A stretch of 63,729 bases of DNA from an uncultured Bacilli bacterium (GCA_944358695.1 CALVRM010000021.1:1-63729), one strand, 5' to 3'. Counted from the stretch's first letter, positions 1-46,149 are shown. Numbers and translations are program-made. The notes: generated from the sequence alone by a model not told the origin.

Positions 1-165
1 ACAGGTGCTTCGGGATCTTGTGTCTTCGATTCGGATGGCTTGGGCTGCTATGTTGGTGATCTGTACTTGAATGCTTTTTCCAGCGGCTATGTTGCTGCTG
101 TCGATTATGCTTCTGGCGTCGCCTGCCGTGTCTTCAGCAATGGCAATGCGGGTTGCGAGGAGTAG
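1..165 (+). CDS. 3' end of a gene truncated by the window edge; Cys/Gly/aromatic-rich C-terminus, candidate DGR variable region
   Basis: Frame 1 is open from nt 1 to TAG at 163-165: TGASGSCVFDSDGLGCYVGDLYLNAFSSGYVAAVDYASGVACRVFSNGNAGCEE. Only 22/165 nt are A, and 44/54 codons end in C/T. Confidence 0.7.
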   Translation, partial: TGASGSCVFDSDGLGCYVGDLYLNAFSSGYVAAVDYASGVACRVFSNGNAGCEE

Positions 166-183
166 TTGCGGTAGTCCAGCTAA

Positions 184-204
184 AAATCTTAAAATCTAAG
201 ATTT
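184..204. other. Perfect 8-bp inverted repeat downstream of the putative VR (candidate DGR hairpin/cruciform)
   Basis: AAATCTTA-aaatc-TAAGATTT. Confidence 0.5.
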
Positions 205-535
205 AATATCTTGCATGTAGGTAAAATAAATCGTTATTCATTTAAAAGCTTAAGCAAAGAGTATCAAATATATATTAAATATGATTAATAAAACAAACGA
301 TAATGGTGTAAAGTAAATAGTGTCAATGACAACTATACGAACGTTTATTGTTTGTTTTTTTATTTATTTTATTTTTAGTTTTTTGTATAGTTTTAAATAC
401 GTATTTATTAAATGATAAAATTGACCTTTATCCTTTTATATAAAAGAATAAGGTATAAGCTGTTGTTTTTATTTTAATATAATTAAACAGTCCCATAATT
501 ATTACAAAAGCATATAATGCTTTAGAGGTGAGAGC

Positions 536-982
536 ATGTATAGAATATACGAAGTTCAAAATGGTGATACTTTGGCTTCTGTTGCCAGCAGACTGGGAGT
601 TAGTCCTGAGGTTTTAGCCACATTAAATGGGCTAAACGTTAGTGCTATTTTAACTCCTAATAGTTATATAGTTGTTCCTAATGGGGATACTCTTTTTGAT
701 AAATATATTGTAAAAAAGGGTGACACAATTTATGAAATAGCTAGAAGAATTAATGTTGCACCTACCCAACTATTAAAATTAAACGGTTTAGGTGAAAACG
801 AGTATATTTATCCGGAACAAGAAATTTTAATTCCAAAATCAAGAACTAGTTTTTATGTTACTGGTGATAGTGACACATTAAATGGTGTGATTAGATATCT
901 CAAAACTACGGCTGATAATATAGCTAAACAAAATGATACTATTTATTTAGTGCCAGATCAATTAATCGTTTATAAGAAATAA
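536..982 (+). CDS. LysM repeat protein (SafA-like spore/peptidoglycan-binding)
   Basis: Repeats YEVQNGDTLASVA, YIVKKGDTIYEIA and a degenerate third; RBS GAGGTG. Confidence 0.85.
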   Translation: MYRIYEVQNGDTLASVASRLGVSPEVLATLNGLNVSAILTPNSYIVVPNGDTLFDKYIVKKGDTIYEIARRINVAPTQLLKLNGLGENEYIYPEQEILIPKSRTSFYVTGDSDTLNGVIRYLKTTADNIAKQNDTIYLVPDQLIVYKK

Positions 983-986
983 TTTC

Positions 987-2451
987 CAGGATAAAAACAT
1001 GAAAAAAGAAAAGACAGTTAAAAAGCCAATATAAATAAGGGGATTAACTGTTTTTTTAAGAAAAAATTTAATGAGCAAGGATGTTAAAGAATCTAAGGAT
1101 CTCAGTTTCATAAGATAAAGATAATCTAAATCTTATTAATTTTAAACTACGATTATAAATGCTTTTAACATCATTAAGAAAAGCTAAACATAATTTTTTT
1201 AATATTTGTAAATTTAAAAGAGCATTTTTATCCATGGTTGAATTATCATCTTGTTTAAAGGTAAAATCTAAGTGCCAATGAAGCTTATTTTCAACATTCC
1301 AATGTTGTCTAATTGCTTTAGAAAAAGTCTCAATATCTATATATAAACTAGATATATAATACCTCATCTCAATAGTTTTATTACCGTTTTTTTCAATCGT
1401 TTTTTTAACGGCGCCAAACGATTTAATACCTTTCCAATTTTTTAAATCATAATACCAAGAAATATCATCAGTTTGAAAATATTCATAAGTAATAATAGCT
1501 GAATGTGATTTTTCTATTTCTTTAGTATATGCTTTTCCTATACCATTGGCTTTAATTATTTCTAATTGCGTATCATTAAAGTATAGTACTAAGTCATTAT
1601 AAAAGTTTTCTTGATTTAACTTAATCGGTACAACATAATCACCTTTAAGATTAATAACCATTTCAACATTAGATTTTTGCGTATTTAAAGCATCCCAAGT
1701 AATGATATTTCCTTTAACATTTATTCTTTCTAATATTTTTGGAATAGTAGTAATTTCATTAGTTTTATCTTCGATTTTTTCACTAGCTATACATAATCCT
1801 AAATTATTTGAATATACGTTTAAAACATTTAAAGATTTGATTTTATCTCTGATATCATTTTCATTTCTTTTACTACGATTATCGGTTTTACCATCAATAT
1901 TCATAATATCTCTTTTGCTTGAAAAGAGTTTCAAAACATCTTGTGCAAAAAGAACACAAATATTTTCAAGTTCTTCAGGTTTAATAATAGAAAAAACTCT
2001 TTTATAAGTGATAGCAGAAGGAATTCCACCAGTAAGCATTAAAAAATTTTTTAACCAACTTTTTTTAGCAATAGCAAATTCTCTAATTTCCTGCCAATCA
2101 TTACAATTACCTAGTATAGCCAAAAAACTAACAACAATAATATCCCATATTTTATATTTGACCTTACCTTTTTGTCTAGTATCAGATAGATCTTTAATTT
2201 TTTCTTTAAATTGCCTAAGAGCATCATAATTTAGTTCCTCTAAATTGACTTTATATTTATCTAATAACTTTTCGTTTATTTCCGCTTTAGTTAATTTTTT
2301 CTTTTTCATAAACAACACCCAATAATATTTTACAGGTATTTTACGAAAATTTCAGCAAAATTATCAATATTTTTATTTCCTTTATCTTCTATAACCCTGA
2401 TAAACAAACGTTGTCAATACTTATATCTCTTTTTTTCATGTTTTTATCCTG
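987..2451 (-). mobile_element. ISAs1-family insertion sequence
   Basis: Perfect 21-bp terminal IRs CAGGATAAAAACATGAAAAAA at 987-1007 and 2431-2451 flank an intact transposase. Confidence 0.92.
1068..2309 (-). CDS. ISAs1-family DDE transposase
   Basis: Motifs DTRQKGKVKY, IDGKT, NEITTIP, ITWDALNTQ, IRQHWNVENKLHWHLD; probable ATG at 2309. Confidence 0.93.
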   Translation of the reverse strand: MKKKKLTKAEINEKLLDKYKVNLEELNYDALRQFKEKIKDLSDTRQKGKVKYKIWDIIVVSFLAILGNCNDWQEIREFAIAKKSWLKNFLMLTGGIPSAITYKRVFSIIKPEELENICVLFAQDVLKLFSSKRDIMNIDGKTDNRSKRNENDIRDKIKSLNVLNVYSNNLGLCIASEKIEDKTNEITTIPKILERINVKGNIITWDALNTQKSNVEMVINLKGDYVVPIKLNQENFYNDLVLYFNDTQLEIIKANGIGKAYTKEIEKSHSAIITYEYFQTDDISWYYDLKNWKGIKSFGAVKKTIEKNGNKTIEMRYYISSLYIDIETFSKAIRQHWNVENKLHWHLDFTFKQDDNSTMDKNALLNLQILKKLCLAFLNDVKSIYNRSLKLIRFRLSLSYETEILRFFNILAH

Positions 2452-7354: not shown

Positions 7355-7819
7355 ATGGGAACAATGAGTAACGGTGGACCTAGTTTTATTGATATGATTT
7401 CTATTATGAACTCAGAGCCGGATTTATCAGTTTTTGAAATTTCACAGGCAGATATCCAAAAGGAGATAGAACAAATATCACAAGAACTTTTCGCCTTAGA
7501 AGGCAAAAGTAACCCTTATAATTTAGAATTATCTAGCTATCCACCAAATGGTTATATTGAGTGTGAAGAACAAGCAAACAGTAAAAGGTCGCAGTTAATT
7601 GTCGAAGATAAAACTAACAAAGATCAATCATTTAGACAATATGTAGAAGATAAAACTAACAAAGATCAATCATTTAGACAATATGTAGAAGGTTATGATG
7701 AAGAAGGTCTTGAATATACAATAGATTTGTTGAAGTGTGAATTGACTGAATTGGCTGATTGGCAAGATGAATGTAGGCAAAGCTCAAATGGCAAAACAAA
7801 AGTTTTTTTTAGGAAATAA
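7355..7819 (+). CDS. Acidic hypothetical protein (ORFan) with internal duplication
   Basis: Own TTGACA-17-TATTAT promoter and GGGGGGA RBS. Confidence 0.7.
   Translation: MGTMSNGGPSFIDMISIMNSEPDLSVFEISQADIQKEIEQISQELFALEGKSNPYNLELSSYPPNGYIECEEQANSKRSQLIVEDKTNKDQSFRQYVEDKTNKDQSFRQYVEGYDEEGLEYTIDLLKCELTELADWQDECRQSSNGKTKVFFRK
7604..7687 (+). repeat. Exact 42-bp tandem duplication (14 aa EDKTNKDQSFRQYV x2)
   Basis: Units 7604-7645 and 7646-7687 are identical. Confidence 0.95.
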
Positions 7820-12801: not shown

Positions 12802-13260
12802 ATGGATAAATTTAATCGTACACTTCGAGGTTATGACCCAGAGGAAGTCAATTCATTTCTGGACCAGATAATTGCTAGAGTTGAAAAGATGGTTTCTGAA
12901 ATTGACAAAAAAGATAAAGAACTTAGAGAACTCAGAGCTAAGCTTGCCGAAACTGAACGTTTAAGAGAAAAACTTGAACAATATGAAAGAATGGAAGATA
13001 CATTAAACCGTGCTATTCTAATGGCTCAAAAAACATCTGATCAATTAAAATTGGCTGCTCATAGAGAAAGCGAAATAATGATGGAAGATGCTAAAAGGAA
13101 TGCCAGCCGAATAGTAAATGAGGCGTTAATGAGGGCTGAAAGAATTGAAAACGATGCGATGACTTTGAAGAGAAATGTTAATATATTTAAACGACGTTTA
13201 AAAGATATTATTGAATCGCAGTTAGAGATTATTGATGAGATTGATAAAGTAGAACTTTAA
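12802..13260 (+). CDS. divIVA: DivIVA
   Basis: FNRTLRGYDPEEVNSFLD followed by coiled coil; sepF-divIVA-ileS synteny. Confidence 0.95.
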   Translation: MDKFNRTLRGYDPEEVNSFLDQIIARVEKMVSEIDKKDKELRELRAKLAETERLREKLEQYERMEDTLNRAILMAQKTSDQLKLAAHRESEIMMEDAKRNASRIVNEALMRAERIENDAMTLKRNVNIFKRRLKDIIESQLEIIDEIDKVEL

Positions 13261-13267
13261 AAACAAA

Positions 13268-13478
13268 TGATAGAGACGATATATTAAAAATGTTTTAAAA
13301 GAGAGTTAGTGGTTGGTGTAAACTAATAAACATTTAATATATGGATCACTCTTGATGTTTCTTTTTGAAATAACAGTAGGGAAGAACGGTAACGCGTTAT
13401 AGTTATAGAGGTGTATATTTTATAAAATAAGGTGGTACCGCGGCAAAGCTCGTCCTTAACTAAAGGAGGAGTTTTTTG
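13268..13478 (+). ncRNA. Isoleucine T-box riboswitch (full-length class I)
   Basis: Long stem I with AGAGAG bulge and GGTTGGTG loop; ATC specifier 13345-47; AGTA/GAA stem II; AAGGTGGTACCGCG; terminator 13449-13477. Confidence 0.93.
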
Positions 13479-13528
13479 TTATAAGATTCAATTATAAAAG
13501 TTTGAAAATAATTAAGGAGGAAAGAAAG

Positions 13529-16255
13529 ATGAACTATAAAGATACATTATTAATGCCAACGACAAATTTTCAAATGCGAGGAAATTTACCAGAAAATGAA
13601 AAACTGCAAAGAATAGATTGGGAAGAAATGGATTTATATGAAAAAATGAAAACCAAAAACAAAGGTAACAAACCATTTGTCTTGCATGATGGCCCCCCAT
13701 ATGCTAATGGAAATATTCATATTGGCCATGCTTTTCAGAAAATTTTAAAAGATTTTATCAATCGTTCAAAAATGATGGAAGGTTATTACGTTGATTTTGT
13801 TCCAGGGTGGGATACCCATGGTCTTCCAATTGAACAGGCAATGGCTAATAATGGTGTTAAACGCAAAGAAATGAAAGCAGCTGATTACCGTGCATTATGT
13901 AAAGAGTATGCGTTAGAGCAAGTTGCAAAGCAAAAGTCAGATTTTATACGTTTAAATATTATTGGTGACTGGGAGAAACCTTATATTACTTTAACTAATG
14001 AATATGAAGCTAAACAAATTGAAGTATTTGCTAAAATGGCTAAAAAGGGCTTATTCTTTAAAGGCTTAAAACCAGTTTATTGGTCTCCAAGCAGTGAAAC
14101 TGCTTTAGCTGAGGCCGAAATAGAATACAAAGATCGCAAAGATCCTTCTGTATACGTTACTTTTGAAATAGAGGCAGGGAATAATTTTGCTGAAAAAGGT
14201 GATAACTTAGTTATCTGGACTACTACACCATGGACACTTCCAGGAAATACCGCAGTTTGCGTTGGAGAAGACCTGCAGTATTCAAAAGTAAATGCTAATA
14301 ACACTACTTATATAGTCGCCAGTGAATTAGTGAAACCATTAATGGAAGAATTTAATTTTGAAAATTATCAAGTAGAAAAAACAGCTCAAGGAACTGAATT
14401 AATTGGTCTTACATATAAACATCCATTTATGGATAGAATTAGTCCTGTGGTCATCGGACATCACGTTAATCTTGATGCTGGAACTGGATTAGTTCATACT
14501 GCTCCGGCCTATGGTGAAGATGACTTTATTGTCGGGCGAAACAATAATCTGCCAATGGTTAATGGTGTTGATGATCATGGCATTTTAAATGAAGAATCAG
14601 GGATGTTTAATGGTTTGTTTTTTGAAGATGCTAATAAGGCTATTACCACTTGGTTAGATGAACATGGTTATTTATTAAAACTCAAATTTATTACTCACTC
14701 ATATCCACACGATTGGCGCACTAAAAAACCAATTATTTTTAGAGCGACTAAACAATGGTTTTGTAGTCTTGATAAAATAAGAGAAGATCTGTTAAAAGAA
14801 ATTGATGAAAACATTTCTTTTCACACTGAATGGGGCAAAACAAGAATTCGTAATATGATCGAAGGTCGTGGTGACTGGTGTATTTCAAGGCAAAGGGCAT
14901 GGGGAGTACCAATTCCAATTTTTTACAATGAAGATGGCACTGAGATCGTCGACTATGACGTCATGATGCATGTATCTAAATTATTCAAAGAGCATGGATC
15001 AAATTATTGGTTTGAACATGAGGCTAAAGAATTGTTGCCAAAAGGTTATACCAATGAACATAGTCCAAACGGGAATTTTACTAAAGAAACTGACATTATG
15101 GATGTTTGGTTTGATTCAGGTACTTCATTTGCCGGTGTTTTGTTAGAAAGAAATATGAATTTCCCGGCCGATGTTTATCTTGAAGGCTCTGACCAATATC
15201 GTGGTTGGTTTAATTCATCATTAATTTGTAGTGTAGCTTCCGAAGGAAAAAGTCCTTACAAAAAACTATTATCTAGTGGTTTTGTTTTAGATAGTAAAGG
15301 ACTTAAAATGAGCAAAAGTATTGGCAATGTGGTCGCGCCAATGGATGTGGTTGATAAACACGGGGCTGATATTTTAAGACTTTGGGCAGCAAGCGTTGAT
15401 TTCACCGAGGATGTTAGATTTGGCGACGAGTTATTAGCTCAGGTTAAAGAAAGTTATCGTAAGATTAGAAATACATATCGCTTTATGTTAGGAAATTTAT
15501 TTGACTTTGATCCTAATAAGGATAAGATTTCTTATGACAAAATGCCTAAAGCTGATAAATATATGATGATTACTTTAAACAATCTAGTTAAAGAAATTAG
15601 AGAAAATTACGATGAGTATGATTTTGACGAGATTTATAAATTAATCAATAATTATGTATCTTCATTATCAAATTTCTATTTAGATTTTACCAAAGATATA
15701 CTTTATATTGATAAAAGTAATAGTTTAGAAAGACGTAGTGTTCAGACTGTTTTATATGAAACACTTTACGCTTTAATTAGATTAATGGCTCCAATTTTAC
15801 CATATACCAGTGAAGAAGTTTATAAATTACTCCCTGGTACTAAACAAGAAAGTGTTCATCTTGAGCTTTTCCCAGATATTATTACTTACAAAGATGAAGA
15901 AGATATTTTAGAATTATGGAGTGTATTTTTCAATATTAAAGATGACGTTTATAAAGCTTTAGAAGAGGCTCGTAATGAAAAAATTATTGGTAAATCATTG
16001 GAAGCTAAAGTGTACCTTCATTTAAGAGAAGAAGATAAAGAAACTCTAGCGCCAATATTACCAAAATTAAAACAACTCTTAATTGTTTCGGATGTTATTA
16101 TGAGTACTAACGATTTAACTAAATACGATTATTGCGAAGTAGAAATAAATAAATTTAACGGGGTTAGGTGTGAAAGATGCTGGAATTATTTCGACGAACT
16201 AGATATAATTGACAACATTTGTCCTCGTTGCCATGATGTTATAGATGAAAAATAG
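13529..16255 (+). CDS. ileS: Isoleucine--tRNA ligase (type 1)
   Basis: HDGPPYANGNIHIGH, KMSKS, C-terminal zinc finger; start after AAGGAGG. Confidence 0.98.
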   Translation: MNYKDTLLMPTTNFQMRGNLPENEKLQRIDWEEMDLYEKMKTKNKGNKPFVLHDGPPYANGNIHIGHAFQKILKDFINRSKMMEGYYVDFVPGWDTHGLPIEQAMANNGVKRKEMKAADYRALCKEYALEQVAKQKSDFIRLNIIGDWEKPYITLTNEYEAKQIEVFAKMAKKGLFFKGLKPVYWSPSSETALAEAEIEYKDRKDPSVYVTFEIEAGNNFAEKGDNLVIWTTTPWTLPGNTAVCVGEDLQYSKVNANNTTYIVASELVKPLMEEFNFENYQVEKTAQGTELIGLTYKHPFMDRISPVVIGHHVNLDAGTGLVHTAPAYGEDDFIVGRNNNLPMVNGVDDHGILNEESGMFNGLFFEDANKAITTWLDEHGYLLKLKFITHSYPHDWRTKKPIIFRATKQWFCSLDKIREDLLKEIDENISFHTEWGKTRIRNMIEGRGDWCISRQRAWGVPIPIFYNEDGTEIVDYDVMMHVSKLFKEHGSNYWFEHEAKELLPKGYTNEHSPNGNFTKETDIMDVWFDSGTSFAGVLLERNMNFPADVYLEGSDQYRGWFNSSLICSVASEGKSPYKKLLSSGFVLDSKGLKMSKSIGNVVAPMDVVDKHGADILRLWAASVDFTEDVRFGDELLAQVKESYRKIRNTYRFMLGNLFDFDPNKDKISYDKMPKADKYMMITLNNLVKEIRENYDEYDFDEIYKLINNYVSSLSNFYLDFTKDILYIDKSNSLERRSVQTVLYETLYALIRLMAPILPYTSEEVYKLLPGTKQESVHLELFPDIITYKDEEDILELWSVFFNIKDDVYKALEEARNEKIIGKSLEAKVYLHLREEDKETLAPILPKLKQLLIVSDVIMSTNDLTKYDYCEVEINKFNGVRCERCWNYFDELDIIDNICPRCHDVIDEK

Positions 16256-45978: not shown

Positions 45979-46063
45979 TGGTGCGGGTGAAGGGACTTGA
46001 ACCCCCATGCCGTAAGGCGCTAGATCCTAAGTCTAGTGCGTCTACCAATTTCGCCACACCCGC
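45979..46063 (-). tRNA. tRNA-Leu(TAG)
   Basis: GCGGGTGTGGCGAAATTGGTAGACGC...CT-TAG-GA, variable arm, GTTCAAGTC, encoded CCA. Confidence 0.97.
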
Positions 46064-46072
46064 ATATTTAAA

Positions 46073-46149
46073 TGGTGGACCCTGATGGATTCGAACCATC
46101 GACCGTCCGGTTATGAGCCGGATGCTCTAACCAACTGAGCTAAGGGTCC
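46073..46149 (-). tRNA. tRNA with CAT anticodon, most likely Ile2
   Basis: GGACCCTTAGCTCAGTTGGTTAGAGC...CGGCTCATAACCG; acceptor/anticodon pattern as recalled for Bacillus Ile2 rather than Met. Confidence 0.88.

Follow-up and report, generated by a model that had tools for sequence, protein, structure and literature searches.

The stretch of DNA described here, called the window throughout, is the whole of CALVRM010000021.1:1-63729 (63,729 nucleotides, nt) from an uncultured Bacilli bacterium (GCA_944358695.1). Its first lines hold the 3′ end of a gene that has the features of a diversity-generating retroelement (DGR) target. In such systems, a template repeat (TR) is copied by a reverse transcriptase (RT), together with the protein Avd, into the variable region (VR) of a target gene, and the mutations fall at template adenines. 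The following elements lie at this end of the window; L numbers denote related loci and contigs used for comparison.

1..165, + strand: 3′ end of the target gene, 54 codons and a TAG stop, the open reading frame (ORF) being truncated by the window start.
13..180, + strand: predicted DGR VR of 168 nt, comprising 50 codons, the stop and 15 nt beyond it, gapless against the VR/TR repeats of L003 and L005.
166..180, + strand: G+C-rich VR end TTGCGGTAGTCCAGC, the putative equivalent of the initiation of mutagenic homing (IMH) site, with the position and ...CCAGC end of the homology boundary in L003, L005, L136, and L137.
181..205, + strand: conserved post-VR motif AAAATCTT AAAATCTA AGAT, made of columns common to the window, L006, L003, L005, L136, and L137.
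208..227, + strand: degenerate copy of a post-VR hairpin, ATCTTGCA TGTA GGTAAAAT, which is a perfect 9-bp hairpin in L006.

The upstream part of the gene is taken from the ENA metagenome contigs L002 and L006, which were reached via the downstream LysM gene at 536-982, also present on two ENA metagenome contigs. L002 shares 1056 nt with the window and extends 325 nt further upstream; within the overlap the two differ only at nt 128, where CGT stands against CAT. L006 comes from another sample of the same study and represents a second allele, with a VR as in L002 and one base from that of the window. The full gene has about 356 codons according to these contigs, and the L006 protein consists of an N-terminal hydrophobic segment, a middle part, and the same C-terminus as in the window. 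The hydrophobic N-terminus of this full-length orthologue (L006/L002) gives no match to TIGR02532 or N_methyl (prepilin motif GFxxxE). The 457 nt seen upstream of the gene in L006 contain the end of an unrelated ORF and no TR, Avd, or RT. The window itself is chromosomal, with the YabP/YqfD sporulation genes, YbeY, DgkA, Era, RecO, aminoacyl-tRNA synthetases, and a T-box. A preliminary description of this DNA, made from the sequence alone, had placed the gene among chromosomal surface proteins, and both the gene neighbours and the N-terminal hydrophobic anchor of the full-length protein agree with this.

The frame 1 translation of nt 1-165 is TGASGSCVFDSDGLGCYVGDLYLNAFSSGYVAAVDYASGVACRVFSNGNAGCEE*, with cysteines spaced as C-x8-C and C-x9-C. 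G+C amounts to 96/180 (53.3%) in nt 1-180, and to about 30% in the rest of the window, where only tRNA genes equal the block. Adenine makes up 22 of the 165 bases in nt 1-165, which is the window minimum (z about -4.7); the A count of all 165-nt stretches of the window has a mean of 62 and a standard deviation of 8.6, and the next lowest value is 31. Codons ending in C or T number 44/54, and Lys and Gln codons are absent. When compared to this block, the part of the same gene upstream of the VR (L006) has 30% GC and 43% A, and its C-ending codons amount to 7.6% versus 35% in the VR. The change from AT-rich coding sequence to the A-poor block is abrupt and lies near the codons GGA TCT TGT at window 13-21, as seen in the L002 extension. 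The counts given in the preliminary description (G+C, A, codon endings, the lack of Lys and Gln, and the Cys spacing) are all reproduced. Its four-Cys pattern is present as the two spaced pairs, but the conserved set consists of six Cys, two of which lie upstream of the window. Its statement that the block ends exactly at the stop is corrected by the recount: the G+C-rich block overruns the stop by 15 nt and reaches 180, the end of VR/TR homology in relatives.

The 54-residue window fragment alone has no homologues in a word-indexed protein search. A 162-residue fragment of the same gene, from L002, finds homologues at 48-63% identity, and the same C-terminal Cys-rich domain ends the targets of at least 10 target-TR-Avd-RT cassettes from uncultured gut and rumen Bacilli. 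L003, from the ENA study of the comparison contigs, and L005, from the NCBI metagenome-assembled genome (MAG) "Bacilli bacterium" GCA_017511225.1, both contain a target, a 168-nt direct repeat, bAvd, and an RVT_1 reverse transcriptase, in this order. The VR/TR mismatches lie at adenines of the TR, the downstream non-coding copy, at 30/31 positions in L003 and at 24/27 in L005. A scan of GTDB genomes with the L003 RT yields 11 further loci in MAGs of uncultured Bacilli, "Tenericutes", and Erysipelotrichaceae from rumen and gut. Eight of these 11 have VR/TR pairs of 121-181 nt as aligned. The mismatches at TR adenines are 17/18, 13/13, 20/22, 22/24, 22/25, and 23/30 in six pairs, and 22/32 and 26/54 in two looser ones. 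The TR translations share ...CN..SNSNCNVG..NLNANSNGNVNANDN...NCNVN.NGNANCNE*, an example string being GSCNFTSSNSNCNVGDFNLNANSNGNVNANDNSANANCNVNDNGNANCNE*.

The L003 gene occurs in two assemblies (L003 and L007). Between them the VR has 33 differences, of which 31 fall at TR adenines, and the roughly 1050 nt outside the VR have 15. This DGR lineage is active in nature, because the VR differences between the two assemblies are so concentrated at template adenines. Of the 15 differences outside the VR, 11 cluster in the 45 nt directly 5′ of the 168-nt VR (L003:1167-1209 versus L007:738-780). Either homing sometimes reaches 5′ of the detected repeat, or diversifying selection acts on this segment.

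Avd and RT genes lie next to homologous targets in L003, L005, L128-L135, and L140-L147. RT homologues at an E-value of 1e-40 or better exceed 1000, and a profile of the target family matches 407 proteins at 1e-3 or better among 1.84 billion representatives, some of which cover only the N-terminal motif of the profile. No relatives are found in IMG/VR or PHROGs, and the cassette RNAs match no Rfam family. In other members of the family, the target domain is fused to Ig-like modules, and 4/47 members have type IV prepilin N-termini.

Most related cassettes carry an additional MutS_I-domain ORF. It has 133-138 residues and follows the RT in L125-L127, L133, L135, and L140-L147, and it lies between VR and TR in L128 (980-1378) and L130 (663-1061). 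It shows 64% identity between cassettes and 27% to a genuine MutS N-terminus, with the F-Y-E motif kept. RT-MutS_I fusions of about 518 residues occur in at least 10 RT clusters, and L003 has a full-length mutS after the RT in place of the short ORF.

Incomplete loci are also observed in the family. L136 (6208-6860), on a contig that is binned as Muribaculaceae and is probably mis-binned, is a decayed or recombined cassette: the target is followed by a spacer and by a TR non-cognate to the target's VR, and avd and RT are lacking. L138 has a broken RT, and L004 has two tandem targets and no RT. In the MAG RUG357 (L137, L138, L139, and L126), two cassettes are found, of which one has a broken RT, together with at least two paralogous targets whose VRs differ. 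The RUG357 contigs break within the conserved part of the target genes, and the window may start where it does for the same reason.

Codon by codon, the window agrees with the template of this family. Of the 21 codons for which two or more of three related TRs have AAY (Y being C or T), 20 are NNY in the window, and three of these 20 still read AAT. At 24 of the 29 scaffold codons, its residue is common to at least one related template. The A fraction of the window VR is 0.13 and its G+C is 0.53, compared to 0.125-0.173 and 0.49-0.60 for VRs with a cognate TR. There is strong evidence, drawn from sequence comparison, that nt 13-180 were written by mutagenic retrohoming, because the register is gapless, the codons are NNY, the scaffold residues are shared, and the composition is that of VRs with a living template. 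Nt 13-180 are therefore very probably a DGR-written VR of this family. The preliminary description had proposed a DGR VR, and had stated that the lack of an adenine-rich template or a DGR RT in the genome or in relatives, together with ordinary divergence among homologues, would speak against it. The relatives carry DGR RTs, Avd, adenine-rich templates, and adenine-specific VR/TR pairs, and the homologues examined show A-to-N substitution and not ordinary divergence.

A G+C-rich, A-poor patch might also arise by horizontal transfer, or from a composition rich in Gly, Ala, Ser, and Cys. Small Cys-rich extracellular domains can be compositionally odd, and the window contains no template. However, the switch at about nt 13-21 coincides with the start of VR/TR homology in relatives, and the block ends at 180, 15 nt into non-coding DNA, where amino-acid composition is no explanation. 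The rest of the gene has normal AT-rich codons, and the homologous domains are rewritten at template adenines. An origin unrelated to a DGR is hardly credible on these grounds.

The search for a TR in the 63.7-kb window, by blastn at word size 7 and by an adenine-aware scan of both strands, gives A-rich noise only, and tblastn queries with Avd and RT from related cassettes find neither gene in the window. This upholds the preliminary description, which had seen no template repeat or RT here. No cognate TR is present among 25 related cassette/target loci, the best two leaving 34-35 non-adenine mismatches versus 1-3 in true pairs. The TR of L003, which comes from the same study, was ruled out as the template by its 35 non-adenine mismatches. 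A TR-compatible IUPAC 45-mer, in which A is kept, variable G becomes R, variable C becomes M, and scaffold codons stand as plain bases, has no match in GTDB genomes, JGI metagenomes, or IMG/VR. An exact 62-mer over the VR end and flank finds nothing in GTDB genomes, and a 21-mer finds nothing in JGI metagenomes. The loose anchor TAGTTGCNNTAGTCCAGC gives 117 chance matches in unrelated phyla and is uninformative.

The structure of the variable domain was predicted with AlphaFold2 (AF2). For the window's orthologue (P0001, from a 9-sequence alignment), the model covers the last 115 residues and has a pLDDT of 87.7 and a pTM of 0.80; that of the complete conserved domain (P0007, 157 residues, 47 sequences) has a pLDDT of 97.9 and a pTM of 0.92. 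The C-terminal 110 residues or so are predicted to comprise three strands, two helices, and six short strands arranged as three hairpins, and the longer model adds further N-terminal elements. The six conserved Cys have a natural pairing of C-x10-C, C-x8-C, and C-x9-C, the last two of which are predicted to flank two of the three hairpins. The template Asn codons occupy alternate positions of the last strands, while the intervening Leu, Ala, Val, Gly, and Cys are fixed. Because of this alternation, the variable side chains would cover one face of a small beta-sheet.

The solved DGR variable proteins of the structural papers considered here all have a C-type lectin (CLec) fold (PMC6328139, PMC5006420). 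Foldseek comparison of the two models with the PDB gives best E-values of 0.07 and 0.11 with TM-scores of at most 0.39 (polo-box and TCP10 beta-sheets), and no CLec chain is among the listed top 50 PDB matches of either model. Against BFVD nothing convincing is found, the best match having an E-value of 4.6e-3 and a TM-score of 0.36. Pfam, including FGE-sulfatase and DUF1566 and at permissive thresholds, gives the domain no match, whether in the fragment from the window, in the full-length protein, or in 47 members of the family. An NCBIfam scan of six target proteins assigns the domain to no family, and neither a PHROG scan nor a PDB sequence-profile search yields one. By prediction, the domain is not a C-type lectin fold. 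The preliminary description had suggested a distinct display fold, and the two confident models, which match no CLec structure or family, point the same way.

The domain could instead be a highly diverged C-type lectin fold and hence no new display scaffold. In the survey of Roux et al. (PMC8144416), all annotated VRs map to CLec folds and the unannotated ones are probably CLec variants. The predicted order of strands, two helices, and strands also loosely recalls the C-type lectin-like domain in our judgement. When set against the low TM-scores, the lack of CLec chains among the listed top matches of two confident models, and the negative Pfam and PDB sequence-profile searches, this explanation appears improbable.

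The region downstream of the VR differs between the window and its relatives. About 70 nt past the VR are homologous to the VR-TR spacer of L003/L006, and are followed by the LysM gene and an insertion sequence (IS) transposase. Repeats like ATCT..ATCTAAAATC recur through the wider clade. Independent folds of each locus show that a post-VR hairpin is intact in 11 related target loci, namely L006 together with L003, L007, and L128-L135. The hairpin lies about 25-30 nt past the VR end; in L003, L007, and L128-L135 it has perfect stems of 6-11 bp with a sequence that differs by locus, such as TTTTGCC/GGCAAAA, CCACTTGC/GCAAGTGG, TCTTTTGA/TCAAAAGA, and AAAATTCC/GGAATTTT. Efficient retrohoming in the phage BPP-1 DGR depends on a hairpin after the VR, and the stem of this hairpin tolerates changes of sequence (PMC3240598). 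When compared to L006, the window, L001, and L002 have stem-breaking substitutions at 210, 215, and 222, and the window has a further difference in the hairpin loop at 217. The post-VR hairpin is gone from the minimum-energy fold of the window. A local 8-bp A/T hairpin is possible in the window allele at 184-204, and is weaker than the clade hairpin. In the comparison of L006:1566-1650 with window 203-275, the identity falls sharply, from about 100% to about 73%, from window nt 203 onwards. Such a drop suggests that recombination had a breakpoint immediately 3′ of the VR cis elements, or that the two sequences are paralogous loci.

A second downstream element, TGCCGAA-N(2-25)-GTAGGCA, occurs once in each of 12 related loci and lies between VR and TR wherever both are mapped. 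Neither the window nor any of 117 unrelated loci contains it, and it has no Rfam family. Its form is stem-loop-like, and it may be part of the DGR RNA or of target recognition. Sites are found at the following positions.

L003:1525-1555
L005:841-871
L128:882-902
L129:1942-1967
L130:564-584
L131:3205-3226
L132:3169-3189
L133:1000-1020
L135:3159-3188
L142:1197-1225

Two genes stand directly downstream of these elements in the window.

536..982, + strand: LysM-domain protein gene (Pfam LysM, E-value 3e-24), which sits where relatives carry TR-avd-RT.
1068..2318, - strand: IS transposase (Pfam DDE_Tnp_1 and DDE_Tnp_1_assoc, ISAs1-like), about 900 nt downstream of the VR.

The LysM/IS transposase arrangement is repeated on the ENA contig L001. 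A 27-nt segment at window 981-1007 has an inverted match at 2431-2457. It is possible that the IS transposase was the agent of the rearrangement that parted the VR from its cassette.

The preferred reading, at a probability of roughly 0.55, is that the window copy is not efficiently rewritten at present, being a remote target that is either stranded or, at best, weakly served; if the VR is taken as DGR-written, this status becomes at most slightly more probable. In our judgement, it is favoured by the lack of TR, RT, Avd, and the TGCCGAA element in the window, by the broken hairpin, and by a near-invariant VR. The VR differs from L002 and L006 by the single base at nt 128, and the 33 VR bases present in L001 are identical. 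No multi-site VR variation is seen between the window and L001, L002, and L006, unlike between L003 and L007. We also count in its favour the nonsense codon of the L006 allele (TAT to TAA at L006:1157-1159) and the nearby IS transposase. Decay is known in the family from the L136, L138, and L004 loci.

The same VR could also be a live remote target, which a TR-Avd-RT cassette beyond the window rewrites in trans. Several points weigh against the stranded reading or speak for this alternative. The window VR is as A-poor and as rich in third-position C as VRs with living templates, from which it is indistinguishable in composition; because this composition is kept in a 30% GC genome, the last homing was probably recent. 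Both the window and L002 have an intact ORF, and conservation extends to the IMH-like end and the post-VR motif. The sole single-nucleotide polymorphism, at nt 128, is at an adenine-equivalent position: it changes the middle base of a codon for which all three related TRs have AAT. Chromosomal DGRs are on record with remote targets that lie more than 100 kb from their RT (PMC5758913), and genomes of this family have several targets or targets away from the RT (RUG357 with L137-L139 and L126; L004). Two assemblies break at an edge of the VR, namely at the window start and, in L001, at its start at nt 148, as would be expected from a repeat partner. The invariance of the VR is weak evidence, because a single study supplied all three comparison contigs, which may represent one clonal population. 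In addition, the DGR authorship of the window VR is read from homology and composition and not from a TR/VR pair, and the statement on its fold is a matter of prediction and Foldseek comparison. A live remote target is at odds with the failure to find a cognate TR in the window, the 25 related loci, GTDB, JGI metagenomes, and IMG/VR, and with the broken hairpin, the circulating nonsense allele, and the VR that shows no multi-site variation between assemblies. It is regarded as possible and is held only tentatively. The stranded or weakly served target remains the preferred description of the window copy.

Other features of the window are as follows.

13258-13460, + strand: T-box leader, preceding a class I aminoacyl-tRNA synthetase gene at 13502-16255.
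45979-46149, - strand: tRNA-Leu(TAG) and tRNA-Met(CAT) genes.

The ORF at 7355-7819 (+ strand) has an exact tandem duplication of a 14-residue segment, VEDKTNKDQSFRQY occurring twice.

The mechanism proposed here is that of the relatives and would apply to the window by analogy. The target would be the gene of a secreted or membrane-anchored surface protein on an AT-rich chromosome of spore-forming Bacillota, with the VR at its 3′ end. A non-coding TR would be transcribed, its scaffold codons avoiding adenine and about 20 display codons being AAC or AAT. The DGR RT and Avd would copy the TR RNA with misincorporation opposite adenines, and the resulting cDNA would take the place of the VR as far as the ...CCAGC boundary, which lies shortly after the stop codon. 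Each AAY codon would become NNY, which allows 15 possible residues and no stops.

Taken together, the observations lean towards a DGR lineage of gut and rumen Bacilli with the order target-TR-Avd-RT(-MutS_I-like). Its targets would end in a non-CLec scaffold, a small beta-sheet with three conserved Cys pairs in which about 20 template Asn codons randomise one face, fused to anchors, Ig-like stalks, or type IV prepilin N-termini. On this account the scaffold is a second, independent structural solution, and the window contains a detached member. The scaffold and the lineage would be new, while the mechanism is already known, and the MutS_I-like accessory gene is known (Wu et al. 2018) but little studied. 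If the account is true, an unrelated scaffold of about 110-155 residues, with three conserved Cys pairs and variable residues alternating on beta-strands, would be evidence of repeated recruitment of display folds by DGRs. Such a scaffold could also serve as a small new framework for engineering diversification in vivo. This lineage is a common one. A role in adhesion or recognition is suggested by the location of its proteins, on the cell surface of little-studied gut Bacilli and in some cases on pilins. The window copy would add a target that became detached from its cassette in nature, which bears on how long the signature persists and on the order in which cis elements decay.

Bordetella phage BPP-1: The DGR of BPP-1 (Mtd/TR/Avd/bRT) resembles the present system in the adenine-specific TR-to-VR transfer seen in relatives, and in their Avd and RVT_1 genes. 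The VR of the relatives is likewise at the target 3′ end, with a G+C-rich end and a hairpin after it (PMC3240598). In contrast to the order mtd-avd-TR-brt, the relatives have the target, a spacer of about 250 nt, TR, avd, RT, and often the MutS_I-like gene. The hairpin stands about 25-30 nt past the VR and not immediately after it. BPP-1 is phage-borne, whereas the system here is chromosomal, with no relatives found in IMG/VR or PHROGs, and its variable domain is predicted to be non-CLec.

Treponema denticola TvpA: TvpA and its paralogues have the FGE-sulfatase type of CLec fold, and the system has an HRDC accessory gene. The domain described here differs in having no Pfam match and another predicted fold, and no TR matching the window VR was found. 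The TvpA DGR is similar in being chromosomal, in diversifying surface proteins, and in having targets that can lie far from the RT (PMC5758913). The window copy is comparable to a non-adjacent target of the TvpA type, if it is still served.

Legionella LdtA: LdtA is a DUF1566/CLec lipoprotein of a Gram-negative bacterium. The targets of the present lineage are surface-displayed as in the LdtA element, but they belong to Bacilli and combine an N-terminal anchor, Ig-like domains in the middle or a prepilin N-terminus with the Cys-stapled beta domain. LdtA belongs to the MutS-like (MSL) DGRs ('Architecture D'; Wu et al. 2018), and most related cassettes resemble these in having a MutS_I-like gene or fusion. 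The MSL accessory class and the C-terminal MutS_I extensions of RTs have already been described (PMC5758913).

Ig1/Ig2 classes: The VR classes of Wu et al. (PMC5758913) are CLec1-3, the tentative Ig1 and Ig2, and unknown. Ig1 and Ig2 are the only previously flagged DGR VRs that are not clearly CLec, a trait that the predicted fold of the present domain would share. They are described as occurring in phage tail-fibre proteins, many with internal VRs, whereas the proteins here are cellular and have a C-terminal VR.

Bacteroides type V pilus adhesins: The variable fold of the Bacteroides pilus-adhesin DGRs is CLec, unlike the domain here. They belong to another phylum and another pilus type, the present family having type IV prepilin N-termini in the few members noted above. 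According to the preprint (bioRxiv 10.1101/2024.11.15.621889), they are similar to the present lineage as gut chromosomal DGRs that vary pilus-associated adhesive proteins.
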